The notes below the pieces were generated by a model. The model did not search any database, had not been told where the DNA came from, and saw only the letters and a list, made by a program, of their open reading frames with translations. A program made the position numbers and the translations under genes. DNA of 64,000 nucleotides from the NCBI RefSeq assembly GCF_046105845.1, contig NZ_CP151004.1; one strand, given 5' to 3'. Every line of letters starts with the position of its first letter. Within the stretch, counting starts at the first letter, position 1. Positions 8,804-33,185 of the stretch are shown in pieces. This DNA comes from Escherichia coli. GTDB lineage: Bacteria; Pseudomonadota; Gammaproteobacteria; Enterobacterales; Enterobacteriaceae.

Positions 8804-8807
8804 ACAT

Positions 8808-9138: not shown

Positions 9139-9214
9139 TGGTGGGTCGTGCAGGATTCGAACCTGCGACCAATTGATTAAAAGTCAACTGCTCTACCAAC
9201 TGAGCTAACGACCC
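9139..9214 (-). tRNA. lysY: tRNA-Lys (anticodon UUU)
   Basis: Identical 76-nt tRNA-Lys copy. Confidence 0.97.
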
Positions 9215-9217
9215 GAG

Positions 9218-9293
9218 TGGTGGGTGATGACGGGATCGAACCGCCGACCCCCTCCTTGTAAGGGAGGTGCTCTCCCAGCTGAGCTAATCACCC
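9218..9293 (-). tRNA. valZ: tRNA-Val (anticodon UAC)
   Basis: Minus-strand sequence GGGTGATTAGCTCAGCTGGGAGAGCACCTCCCTTACAAGGAGGGGGTCGGCGGTTCGATCCCGTCATCACCCACCA, canonical tRNA-Val(UAC). Confidence 0.97.
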
Positions 9294-9344
9294 GATACTG
9301 CGCTGGATACTACAAACTACTTCCACCGAACCCACCGTAATTAG

Positions 9345-9420
9345 TGGTGGGTCGTGCAGGATTCGAACCTGCGACCAATTGATTAAAAGTCAACTGCTCT
9401 ACCAACTGAGCTAACGACCC
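9345..9420 (-). tRNA. lysW: tRNA-Lys (anticodon UUU)
   Basis: Identical 76-nt tRNA-Lys copy. Confidence 0.97.
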
Positions 9421-9422
9421 GG

Positions 9423-9498
9423 TGGTGGGTGATGACGGGATCGAACCGCCGACCCCCTCCTTGTAAGGGAGGTGCTCTCCCAGCTGAGCTAATCACCC
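9423..9498 (-). tRNA. valT: tRNA-Val (anticodon UAC)
   Basis: Identical tRNA-Val(UAC) copy, 2 nt after lysW. Confidence 0.97.
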
Positions 9499-9533
9499 GA
9501 TACTACGCTGGATACTACAACTAACTAGGTTAG

Positions 9534-9607
9534 TGGTGGGTCGTGCAGGATGACTCGACTTCGTCTCGCCCTTCGGGCCGTTGCTGACGCAACGTTATCC
9601 TTCACGT
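9534..9607 (-). repeat. spacer repeat containing an 18-nt tRNA-Lys 3'-end fragment (second copy)
   Basis: Same truncated tRNA 3' end plus shared spacer sequence as 9041-9110. Confidence 0.6.
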
Positions 9608-9633
9608 TTTACTACCGCTTCCACCTTAGCGAT

Positions 9634-9709
9634 TGGTGGGTCGTGCAGGATTCGAACCTGCGACCAATTGATTAAAAGTCAACTGCTCTACCAACTGAGC
9701 TAACGACCC
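9634..9709 (-). tRNA. lysT: tRNA-Lys (anticodon UUU), first gene of the operon
   Basis: Identical 76-nt tRNA-Lys copy; promoter-proximal position in the minus-strand operon. Confidence 0.97.
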
Positions 9710-9873: not shown

Positions 9874-10665
9874 TTACATCGCGTTAAGACGTTTTTGTGC
9901 CTGTTTAGCGCCATCAGTACCAGGGTATTTACTGATAACCTGCTGGTATACGGCTTTCGCTTTTGCGGTGTCACCTTTGTCCTGCATGATGACACCGACT
10001 TTAAACATCGCATCTGCAGCCTTTGGCGACTTCGGATAGTTTTTTACTACCGAAGCAAAATAGTACGCCGCATCATCTTTTTTACCCTTGTTGTAGTTTA
10101 ACTGACCCAGCCAATAATTGGCGTTTGGCAGGTAAGTTGAATCAGGGTAATTTTTGATGAAATTCTGAAATGCCACCATTGCGTCATCCTGGCGGGATTT
10201 ATCCTGCACCAGCGCAATTGCTGCATTGTAATCCGTGTTTGCATCACCGCTTTTCACCGGCGCGCCAGCATTCGCAGTACCAGCATCAGCTGTCGGCGTC
10301 GTTGATGCCGCCGCACCGCTTTGATCGCCGCTGGTTGATTGCGCCGCTGCACCACCGCTGCTGAGGCTATCGATCTGCAACAGGATCTGCTTTTGCCGCT
10401 CCACGACCTGATTCAGTTGATACTGATTTTCCTGAATCTGACCACGCAGGGAATCAATATCGGATTGATTATCAGAGAGTTGTTGCTGGAGTTGGGTTAA
10501 AAGCTGGCTGTGAGCATTTGAAATACGCTCAAGTTGAGTGACGCGGTCTTCGACCGAGCCTGAGCCGACACTACTGATTGGTGCCTGAGCAAAAGCGGCC
10601 CAGGGGGCCGCTATACCAACCAGTAACGACAGACTCAATAGTTGATGTCTGAAGTTACTGCTCAT
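9874..10665 (-). CDS. cpoB: cell division coordinator CpoB (YbgF), TPR protein of the Tol-Pal cluster
   Basis: 263 aa, signal peptide, coiled-coil then TPR repeats; matches E. coli CpoB. Confidence 0.95.
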   Translation of the reverse strand: MSSNFRHQLLSLSLLVGIAAPWAAFAQAPISSVGSGSVEDRVTQLERISNAHSQLLTQLQQQLSDNQSDIDSLRGQIQENQYQLNQVVERQKQILLQIDSLSSGGAAAQSTSGDQSGAAASTTPTADAGTANAGAPVKSGDANTDYNAAIALVQDKSRQDDAMVAFQNFIKNYPDSTYLPNANYWLGQLNYNKGKKDDAAYYFASVVKNYPKSPKAADAMFKVGVIMQDKGDTAKAKAVYQQVISKYPGTDGAKQAQKRLNAM

Positions 10666-10674
10666 GCAATTCTC

Positions 10675-11220
<546 letters not shown>

Positions 11221-12655: not shown

Positions 12656-13954
12656 TTACGGTTTGAAGTCCAATGGCGCGTTTTTGAACACTTCATATAC
12701 TGCCTGGCTTGGTGGTTTCGGGATCTTCGCAAGTTTAGCTGCTGCCAACGCAGCCTGACAAAGTGCGGGATCGCCACCTTCAGGTTTGATATCCAGTAAC
12801 ATACCATCGGGTGCCAGTTTTATGCGCAGCGTACAGGTTTTGCCTGCATAGGACGATGCGTCATAGAACTTACTTTCGATAGCAGATTTAATCTGCCCGG
12901 CATAGTTATTGATATCGGCCCCTGATGCGCCATTGTTTTTAGTATTACCACTCCCGGCTGGCGAAGCATTGTTCCCTTTCGCCCCTCCCCCCGTTTTCGG
13001 TGCATTCTTACCAGAGCTTAGCTCACCGAAAATATCATCTGCCTCTGCGGCAGCTTTTGCTGCAGCGGCTTTTTCAGCTGCTGCTTTTGCAGCTGCCGCT
13101 TTTTTGTCTGCGGCGGCTTTTTCTGCCGCTGCTTTCTTATCAGCTGCTGCCTTTTCAGCAGCCGCTTTTTCTGCTGCTTTTTTGTCGGCTGCAGCTTTCT
13201 CTGCTGCCGCTTTCTTATCAGCTGCAGCCTTTTCAGCAGCCGCTTTCTTCTCAGCTGCAGCCTTTTCAGCAGCCGCTTTCTTCTCAGCTTCTGCTTTGGC
13301 TTTTTCAGCAGCTTCAGTTGCCGCTTTCTTTCTTGCTTCAGCTGCAGCTGCTTCTGCCGCTTCCGCTTTCTTCTTCAGTGCCGCCGCGGCTGCCTCGGCT
13401 TTTTTCTGCGCTTCGGCTGCGGCTTTGGCGGCTTCTGCTTCTGCTTTTTTCTTCGCGTCTGCAGCCGCTTTCTTCGCAGCTTCTTCCGCAGCTTTAGCAT
13501 CCGCTTCGGCCTTCGCTTTAGCATCTGCCGCCGCTTTCGCTGCCGCTTCTTCCGCTTGCTTCTGCTTTAACTCGGCCTGTTTTGCGGCTTCTTCAGCCTG
13601 CTTTTTCTGTTCCTGAGCAGCTAACCGCTCTTTCTCAAGTTGCTTCAGGCGTTCCTGTTCAGCCGCTTGTTTCTCACGCAGTTCTTCAGCAGCCTGCTGT
13701 TCCTTCATCTTGCGCTGCTCATCAGAACGCTTCGCGCTTGATTCCTGGCTTTGCATGCGTTTGTACTGCTCAACTACCGCACCTGAATCAACCATGACAG
13801 CGTCGATGGATGAACCACCGCCGCCTCCGGCTGAAGCTTCTATATTCTCATCGAACGAACTCCAGATCAGCGCCGCAAATAAGATGACATGCAGCACTGC
13901 TGAAATAATTATCGCCCGCTTGAGCTTGTCGTTTTGTTCGGTTGCCTTTGACAC
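12656..13954 (-). CDS. tolA: Tol-Pal system protein TolA (432 aa; K-12 TolA is 421 aa as I recall)
   Basis: N-terminal anchor MSKATEQNDKLKRAIIISAVLHVILFAAL, long Ala/Lys/Glu-rich helical domain II, conserved C-terminal domain III. Confidence 0.95.
   Translation of the reverse strand: MSKATEQNDKLKRAIIISAVLHVILFAALIWSSFDENIEASAGGGGGSSIDAVMVDSGAVVEQYKRMQSQESSAKRSDEQRKMKEQQAAEELREKQAAEQERLKQLEKERLAAQEQKKQAEEAAKQAELKQKQAEEAAAKAAADAKAKAEADAKAAEEAAKKAAADAKKKAEAEAAKAAAEAQKKAEAAAAALKKKAEAAEAAAAEARKKAATEAAEKAKAEAEKKAAAEKAAAEKKAAAEKAAADKKAAAEKAAADKKAAEKAAAEKAAADKKAAAEKAAADKKAAAAKAAAEKAAAAKAAAEADDIFGELSSGKNAPKTGGGAKGNNASPAGSGNTKNNGASGADINNYAGQIKSAIESKFYDASSYAGKTCTLRIKLAPDGMLLDIKPEGGDPALCQAALAAAKLAKIPKPPSQAVYEVFKNAPLDFKP
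13030..13570. repeat. in-frame tandem repeats inside tolA domain II
   Basis: 30-33 bp units such as gctgcagccttttcagcagccgctttcttctca repeated back to back (e.g. 13222-13254 and 13252-13284), encoding KKAAAEKAAAD-type repeats. Confidence 0.8.
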
Positions 13955-14018
13955 TCTCGGTTCCCAAAAACTGTTCGCCTGTTACCCGCTCTCTTTCAAG
14001 CAAGGGAAACGCAGATGT

Positions 14019-19189: not shown

Positions 19190-19643
19190 AACCAACCAAA
19201 TATGTTAATTATGTATAAACCATAGATCATTGGTGATTTTATTGTTAATTTATTGTGAAATATTTATGCAACACAATTATTACAATGAAAAGGTATAGAT
19301 AAAAAACCAGTGTTTTATTTAACAGAACCGCCTTATCCACTTTTTATAATACCAATTGATTAGATTAGCCAATTTGTTGCTATTTTACATAACATATTTT
19401 TATCAAAGTTAATTGATTGTTGCCTTTATGAGCACCGGCCGTAAGCCCGTTATGTTATTGTTTCATTAGTAATAATCACTTAAATGTATCGATGAAACAG
19501 GTATGACTTAGCGGGAGTGATTGTTTCTGAGTGAACAGAGACCACTTTCGCCTGATAAATGAAAAATGAGCGATTTTTGCAAGTTAGTTTTTCTATAGCC
19601 GAGTACGCTCAGCGCCTCGCTTGATTACAATGAGGTTGCTGCT

Positions 19644-20588
19644 ATGAGTCCTGATAATATCAGTTCTGCTGTCAATCGCTTCTCAGGTTGGCCATCTAAT
19701 AATCCTCTAAAAACAGATAACGAATCAATGACATCACCCATGACTGTGCAGGTAATAAAGATGATTGCCGCCATCCTTGACCCACATCGGATAGTCGTTG
19801 GAATCGATACACTTTATACAACGCAGCGCGAAACATTTACCTCAGAGAGTCAACAGCTCATTGAATCAGCATTGCAAACACTTCATGTGATGAATTTAAA
19901 TAACCTGGAAACAAATCTCGATGAGGAAGGTCACTATCTGGCTTTTGGATATAACGTTGACACTCCTGACAGAATAACCGTTTCTGCTTATAATGAAAAA
20001 AAGCCTGGCTGCTATGGCCAATGTCTTTTAATACAGGATGACGAAACAGACTTATTTAACCTGATAAAAGTTAAAATTTTTGAAGCCAGGCATAATTATG
20101 TCGCTCAATTGATGAGCGATCCGGAATTTATGTTCAAATTTAGTTATAGCGCTCAACAAAATAGATTAGAACCTCATCTTCTGGTTCCCACTTATTTCCC
20201 TCTAAAAACAAACGAACCGGTTACGCAAGAGGATGTACTGTTACTTTATCGTTTCTTTAAAATGGATGGTGATTTTAATATATTAACATCAGATGAATAC
20301 ATGAGTATCATGACACCTCTGATGAAGTGTGAGCGCAGCATCCACGACCACAACAGGTATGTGACGGGCAAAGATACCCTTCTTCTGGACTATCCTCCTT
20401 CTGGTAACCAGATATATTTCCATATTTTTCCTGACGAATCAGCAACACTAGTCCTTTATTTTTCAAACAATGACATTGAATGTTTCGTCTTTGAAAGAGA
20501 TATTCCGAGCCAGTATCGCTTTTTCAAAATGTTTACCAATCTGGCACTGGTTATTGATCAGTTAACCGATGCCAATCAAATACTTTAA
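19644..20588 (+). CDS. hypothetical protein, no recognisable family (orphan island gene A)
   Basis: 314-aa ORF with a GAGG RBS 7 nt upstream; markedly AT-rich (24 G+C in the first 60 nt); Ser/Asn/Pro-rich N-terminus. Confidence 0.7.
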   Translation: MSPDNISSAVNRFSGWPSNNPLKTDNESMTSPMTVQVIKMIAAILDPHRIVVGIDTLYTTQRETFTSESQQLIESALQTLHVMNLNNLETNLDEEGHYLAFGYNVDTPDRITVSAYNEKKPGCYGQCLLIQDDETDLFNLIKVKIFEARHNYVAQLMSDPEFMFKFSYSAQQNRLEPHLLVPTYFPLKTNEPVTQEDVLLLYRFFKMDGDFNILTSDEYMSIMTPLMKCERSIHDHNRYVTGKDTLLLDYPPSGNQIYFHIFPDESATLVLYFSNNDIECFVFERDIPSQYRFFKMFTNLALVIDQLTDANQIL

Positions 20589-20668
20589 TTTTTATATATT
20601 CTCTGTGGCAAATATTGCTAAACAATGCCCGGGGATTAATTTTTATTACTCACGGAAAGATTTAAATA

Positions 20669-21091
20669 ATGATCCCATCTCAAATCTCTTTCAACACCCT
20701 TCCTGTCAATGCAACATACGCTTCAGAGACAACAGTTGACACACAAAAATTCTCTGACATCCTCTACTCAGCGGGGTGTTCCCTAAAGGATCTGGCTTAT
20801 CTGAGCAGATGTCTGGCATCAATACATCCGACTATCGCCAAAAACATTTATGAAACAGAAAATCTCAGCGATCAAAAATTACTACATATTGATTGCCGTA
20901 GTACAAATGAAATCAAGATAAATATCTTTTTTGGTCAACAACGAGAAGGATTAATTGAAATTAGTTCTGACACAGTCATTTTTTCGATACTGTCTTCATT
21001 GATTGACTCCACCATTTCTAAATTTCAACACCAAAACCCCGTTAACGGTTCTGTAAATCCTGGCCTATTGTATGAGGATTATACTGATTAA
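20669..21091 (+). CDS. hypothetical small acidic protein (orphan island gene B)
   Basis: 140-aa ORF 80 bp downstream of gene A on the same strand; AT-rich; about 16 Asp/Glu versus 9 Lys/Arg by count. Confidence 0.65.
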   Translation: MIPSQISFNTLPVNATYASETTVDTQKFSDILYSAGCSLKDLAYLSRCLASIHPTIAKNIYETENLSDQKLLHIDCRSTNEIKINIFFGQQREGLIEISSDTVIFSILSSLIDSTISKFQHQNPVNGSVNPGLLYEDYTD

Positions 21092-21638
21092 ATCCCTCCT
21101 GTCGCGAAAAATGGCCTGCGTTATTGCCAGACGTAATAAAACTTTTGATTAACGTTTCTCGTACTGGTAGCACTTTCATGTACTTTTCTTTTTTACGAAA
21201 AATCAAAAGAGCTAACAAAGGTCATAATTCGCATGAATCATTAATTATTTGTTATTTTCAACATTATTTTTACATTAAGCAGAGATGAATTGCAGTGAAA
21301 TTCGACTTAACTTTTACGAAATGCATTTACTCATGGCTAAAGCCACGTCACAAAAATGCAAATTAGAAGTTGATCACAATTATCTCAATACATCAAATCA
21401 AGTTAATTTTAAAAATTTAACATTCATGACATTAGTTGACATAACACACTGAATTAAAATGAGAATTTGGAAACACACTTTAAACAATCATTTCCCGAAA
21501 GACATTTTGAAAATAGATCAATTGCAACATTACGGTCAGATAAAGACACTCCTGTGATATTAAACCTGTGCCGTTATGAACGGCCATAAATACGGCGTGT
21601 GTAACTTATTTTACTCTCTGTCTTACAAAGGATTACCC

Positions 21639-22088
21639 ATGAAGAAAGCAACACTTGTGATTGGCGTTATTGGCGCGGACTGCCATGCAGTAGGCAATAA
21701 AGTTCTGGACCGCGTTTTTAGCAACCATGGCTTCAGAGTCATTAATCTGGGCGTAATGGTCAGCCAGGACGAATATATTGATGCTGCCATTGAAACTGGC
21801 GCTGACGCGATTGTCGTCTCCTCTATCTATGGGCATGGCGATATCGACTGTCTGGGCATGCGCGAACGCTGCATCGAGCGTGGGCTGGGTAACATCCTGC
21901 TCTATGTGGGCGGTAACCTGGTGGTCGGAAAACATGACTTCGCTGACGTGGAAACCAAATTCAAAGAGATGGGATTTGATCGCGTCTTTTCCCCAAGTCA
22001 TGACTTAGAAGATGTTTGTCAGCTGATGGCCCACGATATCAACCAACGTCATGACGTTGATACTCGTATTCTTGAAGAGGCAATCTGA
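21639..22088 (+). CDS. glmS: glutamate mutase (methylaspartate mutase) small S subunit, cobalamin-binding; clostridial GlmS/MutS, not glucosamine-6-P synthase
   Basis: 149 aa from [24 protein letters not shown] with AAGGA RBS; DxHxxG B12-binding motif; strong similarity to Clostridium MutS/GlmS as I recall it; ORF-track start at 21576 rejected. Confidence 0.9.
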
Positions 22089-23476
22089 TGCAAATCGTCT
22101 CTGTCGATATTGGATCGACGTGGACCAAAGCAGCCCTCTTCGCCCGGGAGGGGGACGCGTTAACGTTGGTTAACCACGTACTGACCCCAACCACCACCCA
22201 TCATCTGGCGAAGGGGTTTTTCTCCAGCCTGAACCTGGTGTTAAACGTAGATAATGCCCTCCCCCTGTTTAACAGCGGTGAGGTTGCATTGAAGTATTCC
22301 TCCTCTGCCAAAGGTGGGCTGGCGGTTGCCGCAATGGGATTGGTGCCTTCTATCACCCTGGAAACCGCGAAAGTAACCGCTCACTCTGCGGGTGCTAAAA
22401 TTGCGCAATATTACGCCTACAAGCTGAACCGTCGTGATATCCAGGCACTGGAAGAAACGCAGCCCGATATTCTCTTGTTCACCGGCGGCACCGATGGCGG
22501 AGAAGAAAGCTACGGACTGAATAACGCCCGTGTGTTGGCAGAATCCAAACTCGACTGCGCCATTATTTATGCCGGAAACCGGGATATTCAGGACGAGGTG
22601 CAGGAGATCCTCGGGCATAAAGACCTGACCATCGTCGACAACGTTCTGCCCGATCTTGACCATCCGAACCCTTTAGCTGCACGCCAGGCTATCTGCGACA
22701 TATTCCTTAAACGCATCGTTAAAGGGAAAGGGCTGGATGTCGTTGTTGATAAAACAGGCGAAGAACCAATGCCGACACCGTGGACAGTCTTTGAACTGGT
22801 TAAGGCAATCAGTAATGTCGATCACAGCTGGAAAGAGTTCATGCTGATCGACATGGGTGGCGCAACCACCGATGTCTATTCCGCCTGTGCCAACACGCTC
22901 TCGCCCGACACCGTTTTACACGGCGTACCGGAACCCTTCGTGAAACGGACGGTGGAAGGCGATCTGGGAATGCGCGTCTCGGCAATGGTGGTTGGTGAAA
23001 GTGCGAAAGAGTTAGTCAATGTGAATTTTGCTCAGCAACCCGCACAGCTGGACGCTTTTTATCATTACCTCCGTCATCTAGTCGCTCATCCCGACTACTT
23101 ACCCGCGAATGCAGAAGAAAAATATTTCGATACCGTCCTGGCCGGACTGTGTGTGGGTTATGCCACCGAAAGACATGCGGGCACCAAAAAAGAGGTCTGC
23201 ACCTGCGTCGGCAATGTCGATTTACAGATGGGACGTGACCTGACAACCGTGCGTAAAGTCGTCGGATCCGGCGGATGGCTCTCGCGTGCCAGTCAGTTCG
23301 ATATGCATCACTGGTTGAAATACCGCGAGTTAAACGACGACGGTAAACGCATTCTCTTACCGACCGAATTTGAATATTACCGCGATTCCCGGGGGCTATT
23401 ACCACTGCTGGCAAACGTCGCCAGAGTCGATCCGCTGGCCGCCGCGCGCACCAGTATTCAATGCTTAACCCTATAA
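22088..23476 (+). CDS. glmL: glutamate mutase-associated protein GlmL/MutL (putative mutase reactivase/chaperone)
   Basis: 462 aa; start overlaps the glmS stop (TGATG); N-terminus IVSVDIGSTWTKAALF is an ASKHA-like ATPase fold motif; conserved position between the S and E subunit genes. Confidence 0.85.
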   Translation: MQIVSVDIGSTWTKAALFAREGDALTLVNHVLTPTTTHHLAKGFFSSLNLVLNVDNALPLFNSGEVALKYSSSAKGGLAVAAMGLVPSITLETAKVTAHSAGAKIAQYYAYKLNRRDIQALEETQPDILLFTGGTDGGEESYGLNNARVLAESKLDCAIIYAGNRDIQDEVQEILGHKDLTIVDNVLPDLDHPNPLAARQAICDIFLKRIVKGKGLDVVVDKTGEEPMPTPWTVFELVKAISNVDHSWKEFMLIDMGGATTDVYSACANTLSPDTVLHGVPEPFVKRTVEGDLGMRVSAMVVGESAKELVNVNFAQQPAQLDAFYHYLRHLVAHPDYLPANAEEKYFDTVLAGLCVGYATERHAGTKKEVCTCVGNVDLQMGRDLTTVRKVVGSGGWLSRASQFDMHHWLKYRELNDDGKRILLPTEFEYYRDSRGLLPLLANVARVDPLAAARTSIQCLTL

Positions 23477-23494
23477 CAATTAAGGCTGCAATCA

Positions 23495-24940
23495 ATGGAA
23501 CTTCGAAATAAGAAATTAACCCATGACGAATTCATGACCGAGCGGCAACAGGTACTGAAAACCTGGGAAACCGGCAAGGATGTTGAAAACTTTGAAGATA
23601 GCGTTAAATACCAACAAACCATTCCTGAGCATAAACGCTTCTCTCTTGCGCTGTTGAAAGCAGACAAGGAAGGTAAAACCCTTAGCCAACCGCGCGCAGG
23701 TGTGGCGCTGATGGACGAACACATCGAACTACTGAAAACACTACAAGAAGAGTGCGATCTGCTGCCGAGCACTATCGATGCATATACCCGTCTGAATCGG
23801 TACGAAGAAGCGGCTGTAGGGATTAAAAAATCCATCGAAGCCGGAACCTCTAAACTGAACGGTTTGCCGGTAGTTAACCATGGCGTCGCAGCTTGCCGTC
23901 GCCTCACCGAAGCCCTGCAAAAACCGCTACAGATCCGCCACGGCACGCCAGATGCGCGTCTGCTGGCTGAAATCTCGATGGCCAGCGGCTTTACCAGTTA
24001 TGAAGGCGGCGGCATTTCCTACAATATTCCGTATGCCAAGCGCGTAACGCTGGAAAAATCGATCCGCGACTGGCAGTACTGCGACCGTTTAATGGGGATG
24101 TATGAAGAACACGGGATCCGCATCAACCGCGAACCGTTTGGCCCACTAACGGGTACGCTGATCCCGCCGTTTATCTCGCACTCTATCGCGATAATCGAAG
24201 GATTGCTGGCACTGGAACAGGGTGTGAAATCTATCACCGTTGGTTATGGCCAAGTCGGCAGCCTGACGCAGGATGTTGCGGCGATCCAGTCTCTGCGTGA
24301 ACTTGCACACGAATATTTTCAGAGCTATGGCTATACCGACTATGAATTGAGTACCGTGTTTCACCAGTGGATGGGCGGCTTTCCGGAAGACGAATCGAAA
24401 GCGTTCGCTATTATCTCCTGGGGCGCAGCCGTCGCGGGGATGTCTGGTGCCACCAAAGTCATCACCAAAAGTCCGCACGAAGCCTGGGGAATCCCGACTG
24501 CCGCTGCCAACATTCAGGGGCTGAAAGCCTCCCGCCAGATGCTCAACATGGTCAATGAGCAGAAATTCCCGCCGTGCCCTGCGGTTGAACTGGAAATTGA
24601 ACTGATTAAGAGCGAGGTTCGCGCGGTACTGAATAAAGTGTTCGAACTGGGTAATGGTGATATTGCGCGCGGTACGGTGCTGGCATTTGAAGCGGGCGTA
24701 CTGGATGTGCCGTTTGCGCCAGCCGCCTGCAACGCGGGCAAAATTCTTCCGGTCCGTGACAACACCGGCGCGATACGCGTACTGGAAGCCGGAGCCGTTC
24801 CATTGCCAAAAGATATTCTCGACCTCCACCACGATTACGTTGCGGAACGCGCACGCTTTGAAGGACGCCAACCGACATTCCAGATGGTTGTAGATGACAT
24901 CAATGCTGTATCCCACAGTAAATTAATAGGAAGACCATAA
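23495..24940 (+). CDS. glmE: glutamate mutase (methylaspartate mutase) large E subunit
   Basis: 481 aa; long collinear similarity to Clostridium GlmE/MutE (MELRNKKLT...QPRAGVALMDEHIELL...HQWMGGFPEDESKAF...). Confidence 0.93.
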   Translation: MELRNKKLTHDEFMTERQQVLKTWETGKDVENFEDSVKYQQTIPEHKRFSLALLKADKEGKTLSQPRAGVALMDEHIELLKTLQEECDLLPSTIDAYTRLNRYEEAAVGIKKSIEAGTSKLNGLPVVNHGVAACRRLTEALQKPLQIRHGTPDARLLAEISMASGFTSYEGGGISYNIPYAKRVTLEKSIRDWQYCDRLMGMYEEHGIRINREPFGPLTGTLIPPFISHSIAIIEGLLALEQGVKSITVGYGQVGSLTQDVAAIQSLRELAHEYFQSYGYTDYELSTVFHQWMGGFPEDESKAFAIISWGAAVAGMSGATKVITKSPHEAWGIPTAAANIQGLKASRQMLNMVNEQKFPPCPAVELEIELIKSEVRAVLNKVFELGNGDIARGTVLAFEAGVLDVPFAPAACNAGKILPVRDNTGAIRVLEAGAVPLPKDILDLHHDYVAERARFEGRQPTFQMVVDDINAVSHSKLIGRP

Positions 24941-26181
24941 TGAAAATAAAACAGGCCCTGTTCACCGCTGGCTATTCCTCATTCTATTTCGATGACCAGC
25001 AGGCGATAAAAAACGGAGCGGGTCACGACGGCTTTTTTTATACCGGGGAGCCAGTAACACAGGGGTTTAACGCCGTACGTCAGGCCGGGGAGTGCGTATC
25101 GGTACAGTTGATTCTGGAAAACGGCGCGGTCGCCGTAGGTGACTGTGCTGCCGTACAGTATTCCGGGGCAGGTGGTCGCGATCCACTGTTCCTCGCGGAG
25201 CACTTTATTCCGTTCCTCAACGACCATATCAAGCCATTACTGGTAGGCCGCGATGTGGATGCTTTCCTGCCGAATGCCCGTTTCTTCGACAAATTGCGTA
25301 TTGACGGCAACTTGCTGCATACCGCCGTGCGCTACGGATTATCACAGGCGCTGCTTGATGCTACCGCGCTGGCAACCGGCCGTCTGAAAACTGAAGTGGT
25401 CTGTGATGAATGGCAGTTGCCACGCGTGGCGGAATCCATTCCATTATTTGGTCAGAGCGGCGACGATCGATATATCGCCGTCGATAAGATGATCCTTAAG
25501 GGCATCGACGTGCTGCCCCATGCGCTGATTAATAACGTCGAAGAGAAGCTGGGCTTTAAAGGTGAAAAACTGCGCGAATATGTCCGCTGGCTGTCGGATC
25601 GTATTCTGAGCAAGCGCACCAGCGCACGCTACCACCCTACCCTGCACATCGATGTATACGGCACTATCGGTCTGATCTTCGATATGGATCCGCTTCGCTG
25701 TGCGCAATACATCGCCAGCCTGGAAAAAGAAGCGCAAGGCCTGCCGCTCTACATTGAAGGGCCGGTCGATGCCGGTAACAAGCCCGATCAAATTCGCCTG
25801 CTGTCCGCGATTACCAAAGAGCTGACGCGCCTCGGTTCCGGCGTGAAAATTGTGGCCGATGAATGGTGTAACACCTACCAGGATATTGTTGATTTCACTG
25901 ATGCCGCCAGTTGCCACATGGTGCAAATCAAAACCCCGGATCTGGGCAGTATTCACAACATCGTCGATGCGGTTCTTTACTGCAACAGCCACAGCATGGA
26001 AGCGTACCAGGGCGGCACCTGCAATGAAACTGATGTCAGTGCCCGCACCTGTGTCCACGTCGCCCTTGCCGCTCGCCCTATGCGTATGCTGGTAAAGCCA
26101 GGGATGGGCTTTGACGAAGGCCTCGATATCGTCTTCAACGAAATGAATCGTACTATCGCGCTGTTGCAGGCTAAGGATTAA
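24940..26181 (+). CDS. mal: 3-methylaspartate ammonia-lyase (beta-methylaspartase)
   Basis: 413 aa; start overlaps the glmE stop; strong similarity to Clostridium MAL (AGHDGF.YTG, CAAVQYSGAGGRDPLFLA, ADEWCNT, HMVQIKTPDLG); enolase-superfamily fold. Confidence 0.93.
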   Translation: MKIKQALFTAGYSSFYFDDQQAIKNGAGHDGFFYTGEPVTQGFNAVRQAGECVSVQLILENGAVAVGDCAAVQYSGAGGRDPLFLAEHFIPFLNDHIKPLLVGRDVDAFLPNARFFDKLRIDGNLLHTAVRYGLSQALLDATALATGRLKTEVVCDEWQLPRVAESIPLFGQSGDDRYIAVDKMILKGIDVLPHALINNVEEKLGFKGEKLREYVRWLSDRILSKRTSARYHPTLHIDVYGTIGLIFDMDPLRCAQYIASLEKEAQGLPLYIEGPVDAGNKPDQIRLLSAITKELTRLGSGVKIVADEWCNTYQDIVDFTDAASCHMVQIKTPDLGSIHNIVDAVLYCNSHSMEAYQGGTCNETDVSARTCVHVALAARPMRMLVKPGMGFDEGLDIVFNEMNRTIALLQAKD

Positions 26182-26184
26182 CAA

Positions 26185-27555
26185 ATGGCTCGTTCTTTTA
26201 AAGTCTTATCGCCAACGGCAATCCTCGGGTATGGATTCCCGGAAGAGAGCTTCCGCAAAGCGATGGCAGAATCGCCCGATCTGATCGCCGTTGATGCAGG
26301 CTCTTCCGATCCTGGCCCCCACTACCTCGGAGCGGGCAAACCGTTTACCGATCGCGCAGGGGTCAAGCGCGATCTGCGCTATATGATCACCGCAGGCGTG
26401 CAAAATAATATACCGGTGGTGATCGGAACGGCCGGCGGTTCTGGTGCCGCTCCACACCTGGAGTGGTGCCGAGAAATAATTCATGAGATTGCCCGGGAAG
26501 AGCACCTCTCGTTCTCGATGGCGCTGATCCCGGCAGACGTTGACAAAGCCATCGTCCACCAGGCGCTGGATAACGGCAAAATCACGGCGCTGGATTTTGT
26601 CCCGCCGTTAACCCACGACGCGATTGACGAAAGTACGTATATCGTCGCGCAAATGGGCATCGAACCCTTCCAGCAGGCGCTGAAAGAAGGCGCGCAAGTG
26701 GTGCTGGGCGGGCGCGCTTACGACCCGGCCTGCTTTGCTGCGCTACCGATCATGCAAGGCTTTGATGAAGGTCTGGCGCTGCATTGTGGGAAAATCCTTG
26801 AATGCGCGGCAATCGCCGCAACGCCCGGCTCAGGCTCTGACTGTGCGATGGGCATCATTGATGACAACGGCTTTACGCTGAAGACATTTAATCCGAAGCG
26901 TAAATTTACCGAAACGTCAGCAGCTGCACACACACTGTATGAGAAATCCGATCCCTACTTCCTGCCTGGACCTGGCGGCGTGTTGAACCTGAAAGACTGC
27001 ACATTTAAAGCGGTCAATGACGGCGAAGTGTACGTCAGCGGTTCTAAGCATGAAGAAACGCCGTATGCCCTGAAACTGGAAGGTGCACGACGGGTGGGCT
27101 TCCGCTGTCTGACCATCGCAGGAACGCGCGACCCGATCATGATCGCCGGGATCGATAAAATCATCGATGAAGTCAAAACCAGCGTTTCGCGTAACCTGTC
27201 GCTCGACGATGACAGCATTCACATCAATTTCCACCTGTACGGCAAAAACGGGGTGATGGGCGACCATGAACCGATGCAAACTGCCGGGCATGAGCTGGGG
27301 ATTGTCCTAGATGTAGTTGCGCCGACCCAGGAAATTGCCAACAGCGTTTGCTCGCTGGTGCGCTCTACTATGCTGCACTACGGCTATGAAAACCGCATCG
27401 CTACCGCAGGCAACCTGGCGTTCCCGTTCTCCCCTTCTGATATCCAGGGCGGGCCGGTATACGAATTTTCCATATATCACCTGATTGAAGCCAACGACGC
27501 TCTGCGTTTTGATTTCCATATTGAACAGGTGACGCCAGAAGGAGTTCAGGCATGA
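26185..27555 (+). CDS. uncharacterised protein, possibly DUF1446/AtuA-like family (assignment from memory, unverified)
   Basis: 456-aa ORF 3 nt after the mal stop in the same operon; Gly-rich motif GTAGGSGAAP; no enzymatic family recognised with certainty. Confidence 0.75.
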   Translation: MARSFKVLSPTAILGYGFPEESFRKAMAESPDLIAVDAGSSDPGPHYLGAGKPFTDRAGVKRDLRYMITAGVQNNIPVVIGTAGGSGAAPHLEWCREIIHEIAREEHLSFSMALIPADVDKAIVHQALDNGKITALDFVPPLTHDAIDESTYIVAQMGIEPFQQALKEGAQVVLGGRAYDPACFAALPIMQGFDEGLALHCGKILECAAIAATPGSGSDCAMGIIDDNGFTLKTFNPKRKFTETSAAAHTLYEKSDPYFLPGPGGVLNLKDCTFKAVNDGEVYVSGSKHEETPYALKLEGARRVGFRCLTIAGTRDPIMIAGIDKIIDEVKTSVSRNLSLDDDSIHINFHLYGKNGVMGDHEPMQTAGHELGIVLDVVAPTQEIANSVCSLVRSTMLHYGYENRIATAGNLAFPFSPSDIQGGPVYEFSIYHLIEANDALRFDFHIEQVTPEGVQA

Positions 27556-27869
27556 AACAGTCAATTGTCTCACTGGCGCAAGTCATTCGTTCGAAAAATG
27601 CCGGACCTTACGAACTGGTTTTAGATATTTTATTTAAAACCAAAGAAAACTATGAGCGAGTTAAATCATCAGGGCAATTAACCCCAGAACTGATCGCGCG
27701 CTTATATCATGTTGAACCTGACTTTATTCATCGTATTGTCTGGTTTGATCCTTCTAACGCAGTAAAAATCGTCATGCCACGAGATATTATCTCCGGGAAT
27801 GTAGGTGACAATGATGTCTATGGTGCACAGCAACATGCACCTTTATTAAATATGAGTTTCGATTTGTAA
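27552..27869 (+). CDS. small uncharacterised protein, possibly DUF4387-like partner of the preceding gene
   Basis: 105-aa ORF whose ATG overlaps the upstream stop (ATGA), indicating translational coupling. Confidence 0.7.
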   Translation: MKQSIVSLAQVIRSKNAGPYELVLDILFKTKENYERVKSSGQLTPELIARLYHVEPDFIHRIVWFDPSNAVKIVMPRDIISGNVGDNDVYGAQQHAPLLNMSFDL

Positions 27870-28029
27870 AAATCCGAATACTTTTAGCCAACTGACATCC
27901 CGTCACTTATTGCAGTTCAACACTTCAGCTATTTGTAAGGTTGTAATAGCAGGTAGATGCCTGAATCTCTATTCAGGCATCTACTTCTCCTGATTCTGAT
28001 TTATCGCCGTGCACCTGATGGAGGAAAAA

Positions 28030-29310
28030 ATGAAGAAAATAAGTTTAACCACGATGATTCTTTTGGCGCTGGTACTTGGAATGATTATCGGCGTAGTGCT
28101 CAATAACACTGCTTCACCGGAAACCGCAAAACTCTATGCGCAAGAAATATCGATATTCACGACGATTTTCTTACGACTGATAAAAATGATTATCGCTCCG
28201 TTAGTGGTCTCTACCCTGGTGGTAGGTATAGCTAAAATGGGCGATGCCAAAGCCCTTGGTCGTATTTTTTCTAAAACACTCTTTTTATTTATTTGCGCCT
28301 CATTGCTGTCAATTGCCTTAGGCTTGATAACAGTAAATTTCTTCATGCCAGGCACAGGAATTAATTTTGTTGCACACGGAGTCGAAACCACCGGAGTGGT
28401 CGCGTCAGAACCCTTTACGCTAAAAGTATTTATTTCGCATGCTTTCCCCACCAGCATTGTCGATGCCATGGCGCACAATGAAATTTTGCAAATCGTGGTG
28501 TTCTCAATTTTCCTCGGCTGTAGCCTGACGGCGATTGGCGAGAAAGGCAGCGCCATCGTTCACGCCTTAGATTCGCTGGCACATGCCATGTTAAAGCTCA
28601 CTGGCTACGTCATGCTCTTCGCTCCCCTGACCGTATTCGCTGCTATTTCAGCATTGATTGCTGAACGAGGACTGGCAGTTATGGTGAGCGCCGGGATCTT
28701 TATGGGTGAATTTTATTTCACCATGTTATTACTTTGGGTGCTGCTTATCGGTCTGGCCATCGTTTATGTCGGCCCCTGCATCAGACGCCTGACCCGCGCC
28801 CTTTCGGAACCCGCCCTGCTGGCATTTACCACATCCAGTTCTGAAGCGGCTTTTCCGGGAACGCTTGAAAAACTGGAGCAATTTGGCGTTTCCCCCAAAA
28901 TTGCCAGCTTTGTCTTACCCATTGGCTACTCATTTAATCTCGTTGGATCAATGGCCTACTGCTCCTTCGCCACAGTTTTCATCGCCCAGGCCTGCAATAT
29001 CCATTTATCCATCGGTGAGCAAATCACCATGCTGTTGATCCTGATGTTGACCTCGAAAGGAATGGCTGGCGTACCACGCGCCTCAATGGTGGTTATCGCC
29101 GCCACGCTCAACCAGTTCAATATTCCGGAAGCGGGGCTGATCTTGCTGATGGGCGTTGATCCGTTCCTTGATATGGGGCGTTCCGCGACAAACGTCATGA
29201 GCAACGCAATGGGCGCTGCGATGGTGAGTCGGTGGGAAGGCGAACATTTCGGCGAGGGCTGTCGGGGTAAAGCATTAAAACCCAATGAATCGAACGTTGC
29301 TCTGCCCTGA
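28030..29310 (+). CDS. dicarboxylate/amino acid:cation symporter (GltP/DctA family), probable glutamate or C4/C5-dicarboxylate importer
   Basis: 426 aa from MKKISLTTMILLALVLGMIIG with GGAGG RBS 6 nt upstream; multi-TM profile typical of the DAACS family; ORF-track GTG start at 28009 rejected. Confidence 0.85.
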   Translation: MKKISLTTMILLALVLGMIIGVVLNNTASPETAKLYAQEISIFTTIFLRLIKMIIAPLVVSTLVVGIAKMGDAKALGRIFSKTLFLFICASLLSIALGLITVNFFMPGTGINFVAHGVETTGVVASEPFTLKVFISHAFPTSIVDAMAHNEILQIVVFSIFLGCSLTAIGEKGSAIVHALDSLAHAMLKLTGYVMLFAPLTVFAAISALIAERGLAVMVSAGIFMGEFYFTMLLLWVLLIGLAIVYVGPCIRRLTRALSEPALLAFTTSSSEAAFPGTLEKLEQFGVSPKIASFVLPIGYSFNLVGSMAYCSFATVFIAQACNIHLSIGEQITMLLILMLTSKGMAGVPRASMVVIAATLNQFNIPEAGLILLMGVDPFLDMGRSATNVMSNAMGAAMVSRWEGEHFGEGCRGKALKPNESNVALP

Positions 29311-29417
29311 GGGGGATCTTAAGCAATCAGAAGCCAATGACTACGCATTTTTATAAGCCGGATCATGAAGTTAGACGGCAATTAAGTAACACTAACGTTT
29401 AAGGTGAAAAGTGAAAT

Positions 29418-31070
29418 ATGTCAAAACCATTTATCTGGCAAGAACCGTTTCTACAAAATAAAGACGGTACAGAATATACATTAATTAGCGATCAGCATAT
29501 TACAGTAACGGAATTAGACGGCGAAGAAGTGATAAAAATCGCTCCTGAAGCATTAACGCTGCTTGCCCGGCAGGCATTTTATGAAGCCTCTTTTTTCTTA
29601 CGTTCCGCTCATTTGCAACAGGTCGCCAGCATTCTTAACGATCCGCAGGCCAGTAGTAATGATAAATACGTTGCGTTGCAGTTATTACGTAATGCTGAAG
29701 TCTCAGCAAAAGGGGTATTACCCAACTGTCAGGATACCGGCACCGCAACTATTGTTGCCAGTAAAGGGCAACAGATATGGACGGGAGGTAACGACGCTGA
29801 AGCCTTAAGCAAAGGCATTTACAGTACTTTCCAGGAAAATAATCTGCGCTTTTCACAAAATGCGCCGCTGGATATGTATACCGAAGTCAATACGCAAACC
29901 AATCTCCCGGCGCAGATTGATATCAGCGCTGTCGCTGGTAATGAGTACCATTTTCTCTGTGTTAATAAAGGGGGCGGCTCCGCCAATAAAGCCGCGCTTT
30001 ATCAGGAAACCAAATCCCTATTGCAACCAGAAAAACTGACCGCATTTTTAATCGAAAAAATGAAATCGCTGGGCACCGCTGCCTGCCCGCCTTACCACAT
30101 CGCCTTTGCCGTCGGAGGGCTTTCAGCCGATCAAACCTTAAAAGTTGCCAAGCTGGCCTCAACGAAATATTACGACAATTTGCCCACCAGCGGAAACGAG
30201 CAGGGACAAGCATTCCGTGATATTGAGCTGGAAAAAGTGTTGCTCGAGGCCAGTCAGCAATTTGGTATTGGTGCGCAATTTGGGGGTAAATATTTCGCTC
30301 ATGATATTCGCGTCATTCGTCTGCCGCGTCACGGTGGCTCTTGCCCGATAGCTATGGCGCTCTCCTGTTCTGCCGATCGCAATATCAAAGCAAAAATTAA
30401 CAAGCACGGTATCTGGCTGGAAAAACTCGAACACAATCCGGGGCAATATATTCCAGCCTCACTGCGGGAAGAAAACCACGCGCAACATGTACAACTGGAT
30501 CTAAACCGTCCGTTGCGTGACGTGATGCAGGATCTCGCCAGATTACCGGTAGGCACCCGCGTGTCGTTAAATGGTCCCATCGTAGTGGCGCGCGATATCG
30601 CCCACGCCAAAATAAAAGCGCGGCTGGATAGCGGCGAACCGATGCCGGATTACCTGAAGCATCATATTGTCTATTACGCTGGCCCGGCGAAAACACCTGA
30701 TAACATGGCCTGCGGTTCACTGGGTCCAACCACGGGCGGTCGAATGGACGGTTATGTCGATACCTTCCAGGCGGCTGGCGGCAGCCTGGTGATGTTATCG
30801 AAAGGTAACCGCAGCCAGCAGGTCACCGATGCCTGTCACAAACATGGCGGCTTCAATCTGGGAAGTATTGGCGGTGCAGCTGCGTTACTGGCGCAAGAAT
30901 ATGTCAAAAGTCTGCGTTGCCTGGAATACCCGGAGCTGGGTATGGAAGCGGTGTGGATGATGGAAGTGGAAAATCTGCCCGCATTCATTCTGGTAGATGA
31001 TAAAGGCAATAATTTCTTTAGTCAGTTTGAACAGCAACACCGCTGCGCCAGTTGCCCTGCGGGACATTAA
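29418..31070 (+). CDS. fumD: class I (Fe-S, FumA/FumB-type) fumarate hydratase paralog, probable mesaconase/fumarase
   Basis: 550 aa, collinear with E. coli FumA/FumB throughout (PFIWQEPF..., CQDTGTA, GGGSANK, CPPYHIA, HGGSCP) but clearly divergent; sits in the methylaspartate operon. Confidence 0.9.
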
Positions 31071-31079
31071 GGAAAATGA

Positions 31080-31682
31080 ATGGAAGCGCGAATTTCAACT
31101 GAACGGCATGTGCAGCGCCAGCAGAAATTGAAGGAACAGGTCGATACGCGCGTCGCGGCGGCGATAGAGAAAAAAGGGATCTTGATTGTTTTCACCGGCA
31201 ACGGCAAAGGGAAATCCACTGCCGCGTTTGGTACTGTAACGCGCGCGGTGGGTCATGGCAAAACGGTGGGGGTTGCGCAGTACATCAAGGGGCAATGGGA
31301 CAACGGCGAATACAACCTTCTCCAGCCGCTGGGGGTTGAGTTTCATATTATGGGAACCGGTTTTACCTGGGAGACACAGAACCGGCAAGCGGATATCGAC
31401 GCGGCGAAAGAGGTCTGGTCGGAAAGCAAACGGATGCTGGCTGACAAGCGTTACGACTTAGTGGTGCTTGATGAGCTGACCTATATGCTGGCTTACCATT
31501 ATCTGGATACCGAAGAAGTGATCGCTTCTCTGCAAAACCGCCCGGCACAACAAAGTGTCATTGTCACCGGACGCGGTTGCCACAGTCAGATATTAAAAAT
31601 GGCGGATACGGTCAGCGAAATCCGCCCCGTCAAACATGCTTTTGATAACGGCATTCAGGCCCAGCCGGGTATCGACTGGTAA
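31080..31682 (+). CDS. cob(I)yrinic acid a,c-diamide / cob(I)alamin adenosyltransferase (BtuR/CobA/CobO family)
   Basis: 200 aa; GNGKGKSTAAFG P-loop and collinear similarity to E. coli BtuR; AAGGAAA RBS. Confidence 0.9.
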   Translation: MEARISTERHVQRQQKLKEQVDTRVAAAIEKKGILIVFTGNGKGKSTAAFGTVTRAVGHGKTVGVAQYIKGQWDNGEYNLLQPLGVEFHIMGTGFTWETQNRQADIDAAKEVWSESKRMLADKRYDLVVLDELTYMLAYHYLDTEEVIASLQNRPAQQSVIVTGRGCHSQILKMADTVSEIRPVKHAFDNGIQAQPGIDW

Positions 31683-31685
31683 TAA

Positions 31686-31717
31686 CTGCGCCTGGCATCC
31701 CGCCAGGCGCAGGTTTT
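31686..31717. terminator. bidirectional hairpin terminator between the operon end and the convergent LysR gene
   Basis: ctgcgcctgg-catcccg-ccaggcgcag stem-loop followed by tttt; overlaps the LysR stop codon on the other strand. Confidence 0.55.
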
Positions 31718-32621
31718 ACATCTCCTGCGGTACAACCGATTTCGCCAGCAACCATTCACGAAATTGCTGCAAGTGCGGTGAGTCAGACTTCTCTTCCTGC
31801 CACGTCATAATAAAACGATTACCGGTACGAATAGGCACATCACAGGGGATCACCATATCGCCACTATCCAAATCATGTTGAATAGCGAAACGTGGTAACA
31901 GCGCCACGCCGAGATTCGAGCGCACGGCGGCAATCAGCATTGAAAGCAAATCGAAACGTGGTCCGTTGTTGACCAGCGGACTGCTAACGCCAGATAAGGC
32001 AAACCACTCTTCCCAGCCAGTAATACGGGTACTTTGATGCAGAAGTGGTAACTCTGTAAGCAGTTCTGCCACTGACAGTTTTTGATCGGACATTGTAAGC
32101 AAACTGCCGCTGCATACCGGCAAAATCTCCTCTTCAAAGAGATATTCTACTTCCGCCCAGGGCGCGCAAAAATTTTCGCGCATAATGACAGCATCGTACT
32201 CCCGATTAAGAAAATCGCCGTTATTAGCTAAAGAGTGAATATTAACAATAATATCGGAATGTAACTTTGTGAATTCATGTAAATTTGGGATTAACCAGTG
32301 GGTACTAAACGTAGGATTCACGGCAAGTTCAATAACCTTAACCGTAGGCTGCCAGGTCATAATGGTATTGGTATCGCGTTCCAGCTTATTTAATGTTTCT
32401 TTTACTATCCCCAGGTAATACTTCCCTGCATCATTAAGAAAAATACGTTTTTTAGAGTGTGAAAATAACGGAGTATGTAAAAATTCCTCCAGCGCACTCA
32501 CTTGTCTGAATACTGCACTTTGGGTCAACGCTAACTCCTCTGCCGCTCTGGTATAACTTTCATGACGTGCGACGACCTCAAAAGTCACCAGCAGCTCCGT
32601 TTTAGGTATTTTTCCTCGCAT
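31716..32621 (-). CDS. LysR-family transcriptional regulator
   Basis: 301 aa; N-terminal wHTH (ELLVTFEVVARHESYTRAAEELALTQSAVFRQVSALEEFL) plus substrate-binding domain; convergent with the operon. Confidence 0.9.
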   Translation of the reverse strand: MRGKIPKTELLVTFEVVARHESYTRAAEELALTQSAVFRQVSALEEFLHTPLFSHSKKRIFLNDAGKYYLGIVKETLNKLERDTNTIMTWQPTVKVIELAVNPTFSTHWLIPNLHEFTKLHSDIIVNIHSLANNGDFLNREYDAVIMRENFCAPWAEVEYLFEEEILPVCSGSLLTMSDQKLSVAELLTELPLLHQSTRITGWEEWFALSGVSSPLVNNGPRFDLLSMLIAAVRSNLGVALLPRFAIQHDLDSGDMVIPCDVPIRTGNRFIMTWQEEKSDSPHLQQFREWLLAKSVVPQEM

Positions 32622-33185
32622 AATGCCGTCCCTTAAAAATAGTTTAAACCATCAAAAATACATTACTTATTACGAAGTAATGGTAACCAAAGCAGCAATA
32701 AATAATTTATAAGAATCATGATTGACATTTATAACCCAGTAAGCCTGGCGTGACAAATATCTTAATCAGATAATAATAATCCGAAAAGCACAGCGCCTTT
32801 CGAATTATCCGGAATCACATTAAGTGAAAATTATTAAATTGATATCATTTATCATATCTGTGGATATTATGATAAACAATCAACAAAGATTTTATTTTTG
32901 ATTTATAGCATATCCCTCTAAGAATTTTTGCGATGCTGCAATATCCGGGGTAAAGACCCGATCCTGGCTGACAAATGGCACGACTTGACGATAAGCGGTG
33001 AACATCGCTTTTGTTGATTTACTTAACGCTACGGTCAAACGCTGGGAAGCCAGTGCATCAGGTAACGATTCGAAATTCGCCGTCGTTCTTATTCGTGGCT
33101 TGCGGTCGGTTGCGGCAATCCACAGTGGCTGTGGTCATGCAGTCAAGCCAGCGGTCAGATTTCGACCGTGGTTAACATTTAAGGC

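Follow-up and report, generated by a model that had tools for sequence, protein, structure and literature searches.

Genomic context and extent of the island

The window, by which we mean the whole 64,000-nucleotide stretch of Escherichia coli DNA analysed here, contains a strain-variable segment flanked by tol-pal, cydAB, sucABCD, sdh and gltA (Table 1). The flanks match the chromosomes of 5425 of 5426 E. coli genomes, with identity up to 99.3%, and bear out the chromosomal setting given in the preliminary description. In a blastn comparison of the K-12 locus with the window, homology is lost at positions 19214 and 33184; the segment occupies the place of mngR-mngA-mngB in K-12. The island borders show no integrase, tRNA or flanking direct repeat, and their short repeats are all at chance level.

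Table 1. Features of the strain-variable segment, with coordinates in the window and family scores in bits.
Feature	Position	Strand	Description	Model score vs cut-off
Strain-variable segment	19215..33183	.	13,969 bp, GC 0.476, between cydA and sdhX/sucD	
Orphan ORF	19644..20588	+	314 aa, GC 0.38; RefSeq: hypothetical	
Orphan ORF	20669..21091	+	140 aa, GC 0.37; RefSeq: hypothetical	
AT-rich region upstream of glmS	21092..21638	+	547 bp, GC 0.324; presumed promoter/regulatory region	
glmS	21639..22088	+	Glutamate (methylaspartate) mutase S subunit, cobalamin-binding	NF002612, 252.5 vs 110
glmL (mutL)	22088..23476	+	Glutamate mutase accessory protein	NF040745, 508.5 vs 475; TIGR01319, 887.6
glmE	23495..24940	+	Glutamate mutase E (catalytic) subunit	TIGR01503, 864.5 vs 390.1
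mal	24940..26181	+	3-methylaspartate ammonia-lyase	TIGR01502, 543.9 vs 286.15
cmlA	26185..27555	+	AtuA family (DUF1446), predicted citramalate lyase large subunit; starts 3 nt past the mal stop	
cmlB	27552..27869	+	DUF4387 protein, predicted citramalate lyase small subunit; 4-nt overlap with cmlA (ATGA)	
Hairpin	27953..27984	+	Perfect 14-bp stem, 4-nt loop, in the 160-bp gap after cmlB; candidate partial terminator/RNA stabiliser	
Symporter gene	28030..29310	+	Dicarboxylate/amino acid:cation symporter; start codon per RefSeq	
fumD	29418..31070	+	Class I fumarase homologue, mesaconase (mesaconate to (S)-citramalate)	NF011921, 1281.6 vs 1060
cobO	31080..31682	+	ATP:cob(I)alamin adenosyltransferase	TIGR00708, 246.6 vs 167.75
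Hairpin	31686..31712	.	GC-rich, terminator-like, between the convergent cobO and LysR genes; 11 pairs (9 G-C), then GTTTTAC	
LysR-family regulator gene	31716..32621	-	RefSeq annotation; nearest NCBIfam model is a GcvA-like subfamily	Under cut-off

This locus had been read as a complete four-gene module, glmS-glmL-glmE-mal, lacking a citramalate lyase. The gene identities in that reading hold; the four-gene extent does not, a lyase is probably present, and the cluster was already known. The four genes belong to a larger island, in which they are joined by genes for a transporter, the mesaconase FumD, a cobalamin adenosyltransferase and a regulator of the LysR type. The six genes from glmS to cmlB are closely packed: neighbours overlap or lie no more than 18 bp apart. 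The ten genes of the pathway and its regulator are all intact, free of internal stops and equal in length to their counterparts in other strains; four already carry correct names in RefSeq.

The cluster was described in E. coli O157:H7 by Kronen & Berg in 2015 (PMC4682846), in the order GlmS-MutL-GlmE-Mal-DUF1446-...-GltP-FumD-CobA-LTTR, with a reported frequency of 26.5% among E. coli strains and of 90.6% among those of O157:H7. Counting as carriers those genomes with at least 80% of the cluster, we find it in 1117 of 5426 complete E. coli genomes (~21%), at 95-99% identity. With this prevalence, and publication in 2015, calling the module unusual for E. coli was an overstatement. The closest match to the window's cluster among the 5426 genomes is 99.0% identical. 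Compared with O157:H7, the genes, their order, their lengths and the chromosomal site (cydA-sucD) are the same, and there is no structural difference; the DNA is 98.5% identical over 11.6 kb and the pathway proteins are 98-100% identical, making the window a slightly divergent allele. The segment is thus very probably the enterobacterial island for glutamate fermentation known from O157:H7.

Glutamate mutase plus methylaspartate ammonia-lyase

Families were assigned by scores against the curated cut-offs of NCBIfam equivalog models. By this measure the products of glmS, glmL, glmE and mal are each above the cut-off for their own function; the genes are intact and placed as first described. The overlapping stop and start codons that had been noted are present as TGATG (22086-22090), where the start of glmL overlaps the stop of glmS, and as TAATG (24938-24942); glmL and glmE do not overlap but lie 18 bp apart. 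The listed open reading frame of glmS spans 21576-22088. Its start at 21639, an ATG after AAAGGA, gives a protein of 149 aa and agrees with the start annotated in RefSeq for the orthologue (450 bp).

GlmS also exceeds the cut-off of a second S-subunit model, TIGR01501 (245.8 vs 135.8). It aligns without gaps to the GlmS chains of Clostridium cochlearium (1I9C/1CCW), with 63% identity. The DxHxxG motif announced earlier reads D14-C-H16-A-V-G19. Together with SxL, whose L63 is conservatively replaced by Ile, and GG, it completes the motifs of base-off/His-on cobalamin binding: residues D14, H16, G19, S61, G91 and G92 are all conserved.

In the E subunit of C. cochlearium glutamate mutase, we take the active-site residues to be R66, R100, R149, E171 and Y181. 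Their equivalents, and those of K326 and E330, are all conserved in GlmE, as judged from an alignment to 6H9E/1CCW, with which it shares 59% identity. The accessory protein GlmL is identified by its equivalog model and by the position of its gene between glmS and glmE; against the model of its paralogue from the ornithine pathway it scores 253.1, under the cut-off of 600. A solved structure was sought for GlmL, and none is known.

The generic B12-binding fold of GlmS, with its weak matches to domains of methylmalonyl-CoA mutase, ornithine aminomutase and MetH, could suggest that the S and E subunits come from a different B12-dependent family, an acyl-CoA mutase or an aminomutase, with a substrate other than glutamate. 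Those matches all fall under the family cut-offs (50.2 vs 57.45 for the C-terminal model of methylmalonyl-CoA mutase), against 252.5 and 245.8 bits for the two methylaspartate mutase models. GlmE has TIGR01503 as its sole family match in NCBIfam, its PDB matches are all glutamate mutase chains (E = 4e-191), and it retains the three arginines that bind the substrate as well as E171 and Y181. Family scores and PDB matches thus reject the other assignment, which is effectively refuted and which we consider exceedingly improbable. By sequence, the S and E subunits are those of a glutamate (methylaspartate) mutase, as originally proposed: neither membership of another B12 mutase family nor a loss of catalytic residues was found.

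MAL is 93.5% identical to the enzyme of Citrobacter amalonaticus (1KKO) and 56% identical to that of C. tetanomorphum (1KCZ). With the values for GlmS and GlmE, this agrees with the collinear similarity to Clostridium enzymes that had been described at the outset. In MAL, the Mg2+ ligands are presumably D238, E273 and D307, the catalytic residues K331 and H194, and the substrate-binding residues Q172, Q329, T360, C361 and L384; all ten positions (10/10) are identical in the island protein.

A predicted citramalate lyase next to mal

The two genes that follow mal encode an AtuA-family and a DUF4387 protein. CmlA shares 91.7% identity over all 456 residues with 9ERQ_A/9EVF, named "Citramalate lyase, subunit A (cmlA)", and CmlB 84.6% identity over 104 residues with PDB 9ERQ_B, named "Citramalate lyase, subunit B (cmlB)". 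The solved complex is made of two subunits of 456 and 105 residues, with which the island pair aligns end to end and without gaps. Given the close full-length identity of both subunits and their adjacent, coupled genes, the AtuA/DUF4387 pair is probably the citramalate lyase of the island. The preliminary description had stated that no such gene is present here and had proposed a search for candidates; this pair, directly after mal, contradicts that statement.

The lyase assignment rests on the naming by the PDB depositors (9ERQ/9EVF) and on one preprint (10.64898/2026.01.16.699985). In the latter, growth of an evolved strain on mesaconate depended on Cml of Raoultella planticola, which supports the conversion of mesaconate to acetyl-CoA in vivo. 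The protein used in vivo is that of R. planticola; the island pair is a candidate lyase by its likeness to the chains in 9ERQ/9EVF, which presumably come from R. planticola too. A literature search in a limited collection found no primary paper on CmlAB.

The 2015 paper (PMC4682846) speculated on a secreted end product: the pathway would stop at mesaconate or (S)-citramalate, released for instance as an effector on host metabolism and not catabolised. It is true that the island holds no gene for a CitDEF-type lyase, as 0/10 of its proteins match a citrate or citramalate lyase family in NCBIfam. Yet cmlA and cmlB, so close to the solved subunits, are translationally coupled and follow mal directly, and the step from mesaconate to acetyl-CoA is supported by Cml in vivo. 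The negative extract result of 2015 says little on this point, since the cells used did not express the cluster at all. We regard secretion of the end product as quite improbable and a cleavage of (S)-citramalate by CmlAB as the probable last step.

Transporter, mesaconase, adenosyltransferase and regulator

The symporter, called GltP in the 2015 paper (PMC4682846), scores 314.8 bits with the DctA model and 303.2 with the GltP model of NCBIfam, both under cut-off; its presumed substrate is glutamate. FumD is 98.5% identical to the syntenic protein of O157:H7, and against the FumA model it scores 924.9, under the cut-off of 1105: it is an orthologue of the former, distinct from FumA and FumB. 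The O157:H7 enzyme has a kcat/Km of 2x10^6 with mesaconate, against 7.5x10^5 with fumarate (PMC4682846). CobO is 100% identical to its O157:H7 counterpart. From its position, the LysR protein is a candidate regulator of the island.

Upstream region and expression

Neither of the two orphan ORFs upstream of glmS has a Pfam domain, and their products, 93-95% identical to those of O157:H7, diverge more than the pathway proteins do. The 314-aa ORF occurs in 1138 genomes, the same number as the island; a homologue, 65% identical, lies at the same site in a contig without glm genes, and a protein search returned five clusters of close relatives only.

DNA of such low GC as the region before glmS is typically silenced by H-NS. 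This AT-rich stretch would have a regulatory role, and silencing may act through it. On the + strand upstream of glmS there is no convincing sigma-70 consensus, promoter-like sites being no more numerous than in shuffled sequence. At Rfam gathering thresholds, no cobalamin riboswitch or other known RNA element was found in the island. The missing B12 riboswitch and clear promoter, and the sub-threshold scores of the symporter with GltP and DctA, speak against the glutamate fermentation reading.

Strain ATCC 700728 of O157:H7 did not grow anoxically on glutamate, with or without cobalamins, and had no detectable methylaspartate ammonia-lyase activity (Kronen & Berg, PMC4682846). Expression of the cluster has therefore never been demonstrated in E. 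coli. A cryptic, silenced remnant, without present function in this species, would fit the lack of expression and of Mal activity under any laboratory condition tried, as well as the typically H-NS-silenced composition upstream of glmS. We find such a remnant improbable: the ten genes are intact, the catalytic residues are all conserved, and 1117 genomes retain 80% or more of the cluster. In addition, each of the ten genes has a dN/dS relative to O157:H7 within 0-0.17, a sign of purifying selection, from one pairwise comparison with few substitutions per gene. Mal activity was moreover detected earlier in other enterobacteria, according to the citation of Kato & Asano (1997) in PMC4682846.

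It is possible, if doubtful, that the island is a host-induced trait of colonisation or virulence. Silent in the laboratory, perhaps through its AT-rich DNA and the LysR protein, it would be turned on in the gut and ferment luminal glutamate to pyruvate and acetate with scavenged B12, in about a fifth of lineages including O157:H7. The availability of B12 and glutamate would then be niche determinants, and the two site-specific orphan ORFs might have a part in this control.

Proposed pathway and comparison with known systems

As a citramalate lyase pair is probably present beside the other pathway genes, the island appears to encode the complete route from glutamate to pyruvate and acetate. 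Glutamate would be imported by the DAACS-family symporter and converted by GlmS/GlmE with adenosylcobalamin to (2S,3S)-3-methylaspartate. GlmL would serve as accessory protein of the mutase, and CobO would make adenosylcobalamin from scavenged cobalamin. Mal would then remove ammonia to give mesaconate, FumD would hydrate it to (S)-citramalate, and CmlAB is predicted to split the latter into pyruvate and acetate. The present analysis shows which genes these are, that they are intact and syntenic and keep their catalytic residues, and how prevalent they are; that FumD is active in vitro and that mesaconate use in vivo depends on Cml was shown in other work, the latter with the R. planticola enzyme. 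That the pathway operates in this strain is our assumption.

Little in the finding is new, since a 2015 publication already covered the genes and how they are arranged, how common they are in E. coli, and the activity of FumD. What is usefully corrected is the end of the route: with the AtuA/DUF4387 pair beside mal as the predicted citramalate lyase, the pathway is probably complete, and the old question of citramalate's fate is largely answered.

The chemistry is that of the clostridial methylaspartate pathway (C. tetanomorphum, C. cochlearium, C. tetani), with homologous GlmS, GlmL, GlmE and Mal; identity to the clostridial proteins of known crystal structure is 56-63%, and key residues are all conserved. 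Clostridia use a two-subunit mesaconase, MesAB, and a citrate-lyase-like citramalate lyase, CitDEF, with the activation genes CitCXG (PMC4682846). The island has in their place FumD, a single-chain class I fumarase, and the putative lyase CmlAB, an unrelated AtuA/DUF4387 pair, and it brings its own adenosyltransferase and transporter. In the haloarchaeal methylaspartate cycle, which serves acetate assimilation, mesaconate is activated to mesaconyl-CoA; the island encodes neither a CoA-transferase nor a mesaconyl-CoA hydratase. FumD and CmlAB point instead to a route through the free acids.

Four methylaspartate genes

The window holds four consecutive + strand ORFs, assigned in the preliminary description to glmS, glmL, glmE and mal. 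This observation is correct and the assignments are sound: judged by protein score against the curated NCBIfam equivalog cut-offs, all four products exceed the threshold of their family. Starting at 21639, after an AAAGGA ribosome-binding site, glmS is 450 bp long, equal to the RefSeq gene annotated in other strains. The junctions lie exactly where they had been placed, with TGATG at 22086-22090 and TAATG at 24938-24942; glmL and glmE are spaced by 18 bp.

Features of the window, with strand and family scores
Feature	Position	Strand	Remarks
tRNA/RtT array	8652-9709	−	seven tRNA genes interleaved with three RtT repeats (Rfam)
CpoB/ybgF RNA thermometer	10636-10774	−	Rfam
Composition anomaly	13001-14000		AT skew -0.48, GC skew -0.21
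Orphan ORF	19644-20588	+	314 aa
Orphan ORF	20669-21091	+	140 aa
glmS	21576/21639-22088	+	NF002612, 252.5 bits (cut-off 110)
glmL	22088-23476	+	NF040745, 508.5 bits (cut-off 475)
glmE	23495-24940	+	TIGR01503, 864.5 bits (cut-off 390.1)
mal	24940-26181	+	TIGR01502, 543.9 bits (cut-off 286.15)
AtuA-family (DUF1446) gene, putative cmlA	26185-27555	+	
DUF4387 gene, putative cmlB	27552-27869	+	4-nt overlap with AtuA-family gene
Inverted repeat	27953-27984	+	perfect, 14 bp, 4-nt loop
Dicarboxylate/amino-acid symporter	28030-29310	+	DctA and GltP models, both under cut-off
fumD, class I fumarase homologue	29418-31070	+	
cobO, cob(I)alamin adenosyltransferase	31080-31682	+	
Terminator-like hairpin	between cobO and LysR gene		
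LysR-family regulator	31716-32621	−	convergent with cobO

GlmS and GlmE are 63% and 59% identical to the C. cochlearium chains of solved structures, and MAL is 56% identical to the structurally solved C. tetanomorphum enzyme and 93.5% to Citrobacter amalonaticus 1KKO. In alignments to the structure chains, GlmS keeps the DxHxxG motif (D14, H16, G19), together with S61, G91 and G92; GlmE keeps the equivalents of R66, R100, R149, E171, Y181, K326 and E330; and MAL keeps Q172, H194, D238, E273, D307, Q329, K331, T360, C361 and L384. These are key residues in the published structures. Membership of the S and E subunits in a different B12 mutase family, the check proposed in the preliminary description, is refuted: the model of the methylmalonyl-CoA mutase C-terminal domain gives GlmS only 50.2 bits, under the cut-off of that model, and GlmE matches no family besides TIGR01503 in the NCBIfam search.

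A published island, common in E. coli

Homology with the aligned K-12 locus ends at 19214 and restarts at 33184, so that a 13,969-bp segment stands in place of mngR-mngA-mngB, between cydA and sdhX/sucD. No integrase, tRNA or flanking repeat was found at its borders. That the host chromosome is of E. coli type follows from the flanks (tolQRAB, ybgC, cydABX and sucDCBA, sdh, gltA), which have matches in 5425 of 5426 complete E. coli genomes, with identity reaching 99.3%.

Close gene packing extends beyond mal, the putative cmlA starting 3 nt past its stop codon. A gap of 160 bp separates cmlB from the transporter gene; the hairpin inside it may act as a partial terminator or RNA-stabilising element dividing the island into two transcription units. 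The four genes of the preliminary description understate the island, which also has the putative cmlAB, the symporter, fumD, cobO and the LysR regulator. Exactly this cluster was described in E. coli O157:H7 (Kronen & Berg, PLoS One 2015; PMC4682846), as GlmS, MutL/GlmL, GlmE, Mal, a DUF1446 protein, GltP, FumD, CobA and a LysR-type regulator; our finding re-describes it. An O157:H7 genome has the identical gene set, lengths, order and site, with pathway proteins 98-100% identical to those of the window. Kronen & Berg put the frequency of the cluster at 26.5% for E. coli strains and 90.6% for those of O157:H7; for methylaspartate ammonia-lyase activity among Enterobacteriaceae they refer to Kato & Asano (1997). 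Among the 5426 complete E. coli genomes, 1138 match the cluster; in 1117, with identities of 95-99%, the match covers 80% or more. As an accessory trait the island is thus common in E. coli: with this prevalence and a counterpart published in 2015, "unusual for E. coli" was an overstatement.

A probable citramalate lyase would complete the pathway

The fate of citramalate was left unsettled in 2015, because lyase activity was not detectable (PMC4682846). The AtuA-family and DUF4387 proteins encoded directly beside mal match PDB entries 9ERQ and 9EVF, whose chains the depositors named "Citramalate lyase, subunit A (cmlA)" and "subunit B (cmlB)". Both alignments are gapless, with 91.7% identity over all 456 residues for CmlA and 84.6% over 104 residues for CmlB. 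According to a preprint (10.64898/2026.01.16.699985), an evolved E. coli strain needed Cml for growth on mesaconate and for acetyl-CoA formation. From the depositors' names, the preprint and the very high identity, the pair is probably citramalate lyase, and the preliminary description was wrong to state that the island has no such gene. A clostridial CitDEF-type lyase, to which CmlAB is unrelated, is absent from the island proteins by NCBIfam search. With cmlAB present, it has become unlikely that the pathway ends in secreted citramalate or mesaconate.

The FumD of O157:H7 is a mesaconase/fumarase whose kcat/Km is higher for mesaconate (PMC4682846). Glutamate would be imported, probably via the symporter (we infer this step, as the transporter falls below the GltP and DctA cut-offs). 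GlmSE, with adenosylcobalamin, would then yield 3-methylaspartate, Mal would convert this to mesaconate and ammonium, FumD would form (S)-citramalate, and CmlAB would split it into pyruvate and acetate. On a simple count of atoms, the whole sequence is redox-neutral. In E. coli mixed-acid fermentation, pyruvate can give ATP through pyruvate formate-lyase, phosphotransacetylase and acetate kinase. E. coli is not known to synthesize B12 de novo; the island-borne cobO fits adenosylation of a scavenged corrinoid. Rfam detected no cobalamin riboswitch in the island.

Selection and expression

The pathway genes are all intact. One pairwise comparison, against O157:H7, gives them dN/dS of 0-0.17 at few substitutions per gene. 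Intactness and low dN/dS, at these small counts, argue that they are kept functional. The intact genes, purifying selection and prevalence among E. coli genomes make it less likely that the island is a cryptic relic. None of the conditions that Kronen & Berg tried, cobalamins added or not, gave growth on glutamate or Mal activity (PMC4682846), which speaks against a role of the island in ordinary culture. The 547-bp stretch upstream of glmS has a GC content of 0.324; silencing of this AT-rich DNA is a plausible explanation of the absent expression.

Orphan ORFs and the cydA-sucD site

Between cydA and glmS lie two hypothetical ORFs of GC 0.37-0.38, neither with a Pfam domain. A search with the 314-aa ORF returned just five clusters of close relatives among 5.8 billion proteins. 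Both occur in 1138 E. coli genomes, a count equal to the island's; their protein identity to O157:H7 is 93-95%, below that of the pathway genes, with dN/dS of 0.52 and 0.21. In the cydA-sucD gap of an Escherichia-like Logan contig (SRR11658232, 8001-10683), the 314-aa ORF has a homologue of 65% identity, behind which lies an unrelated 258-aa ORF that matches nothing in Pfam. The glm genes are missing from the contig, which ties the orphan to the site.

The interval is polymorphic (window 19215-33183 versus K-12 NC_000913.3 765153-771084): of 5426 genomes, 3887 have the mngR-mngA-mngB segment, 1138 have the glutamate island and about 400 match neither, or something else. The site resembles a gene-replacement hotspot.

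Elsewhere in the window, the tRNA/RtT array and the RNA thermometer that follows it are ordinary K-12-type content beside the tol-pal genes. The strong composition anomaly corresponds, by gene order, to tolA on the − strand and presumably reflects its repetitive Ala/Lys/Glu-rich central domain.
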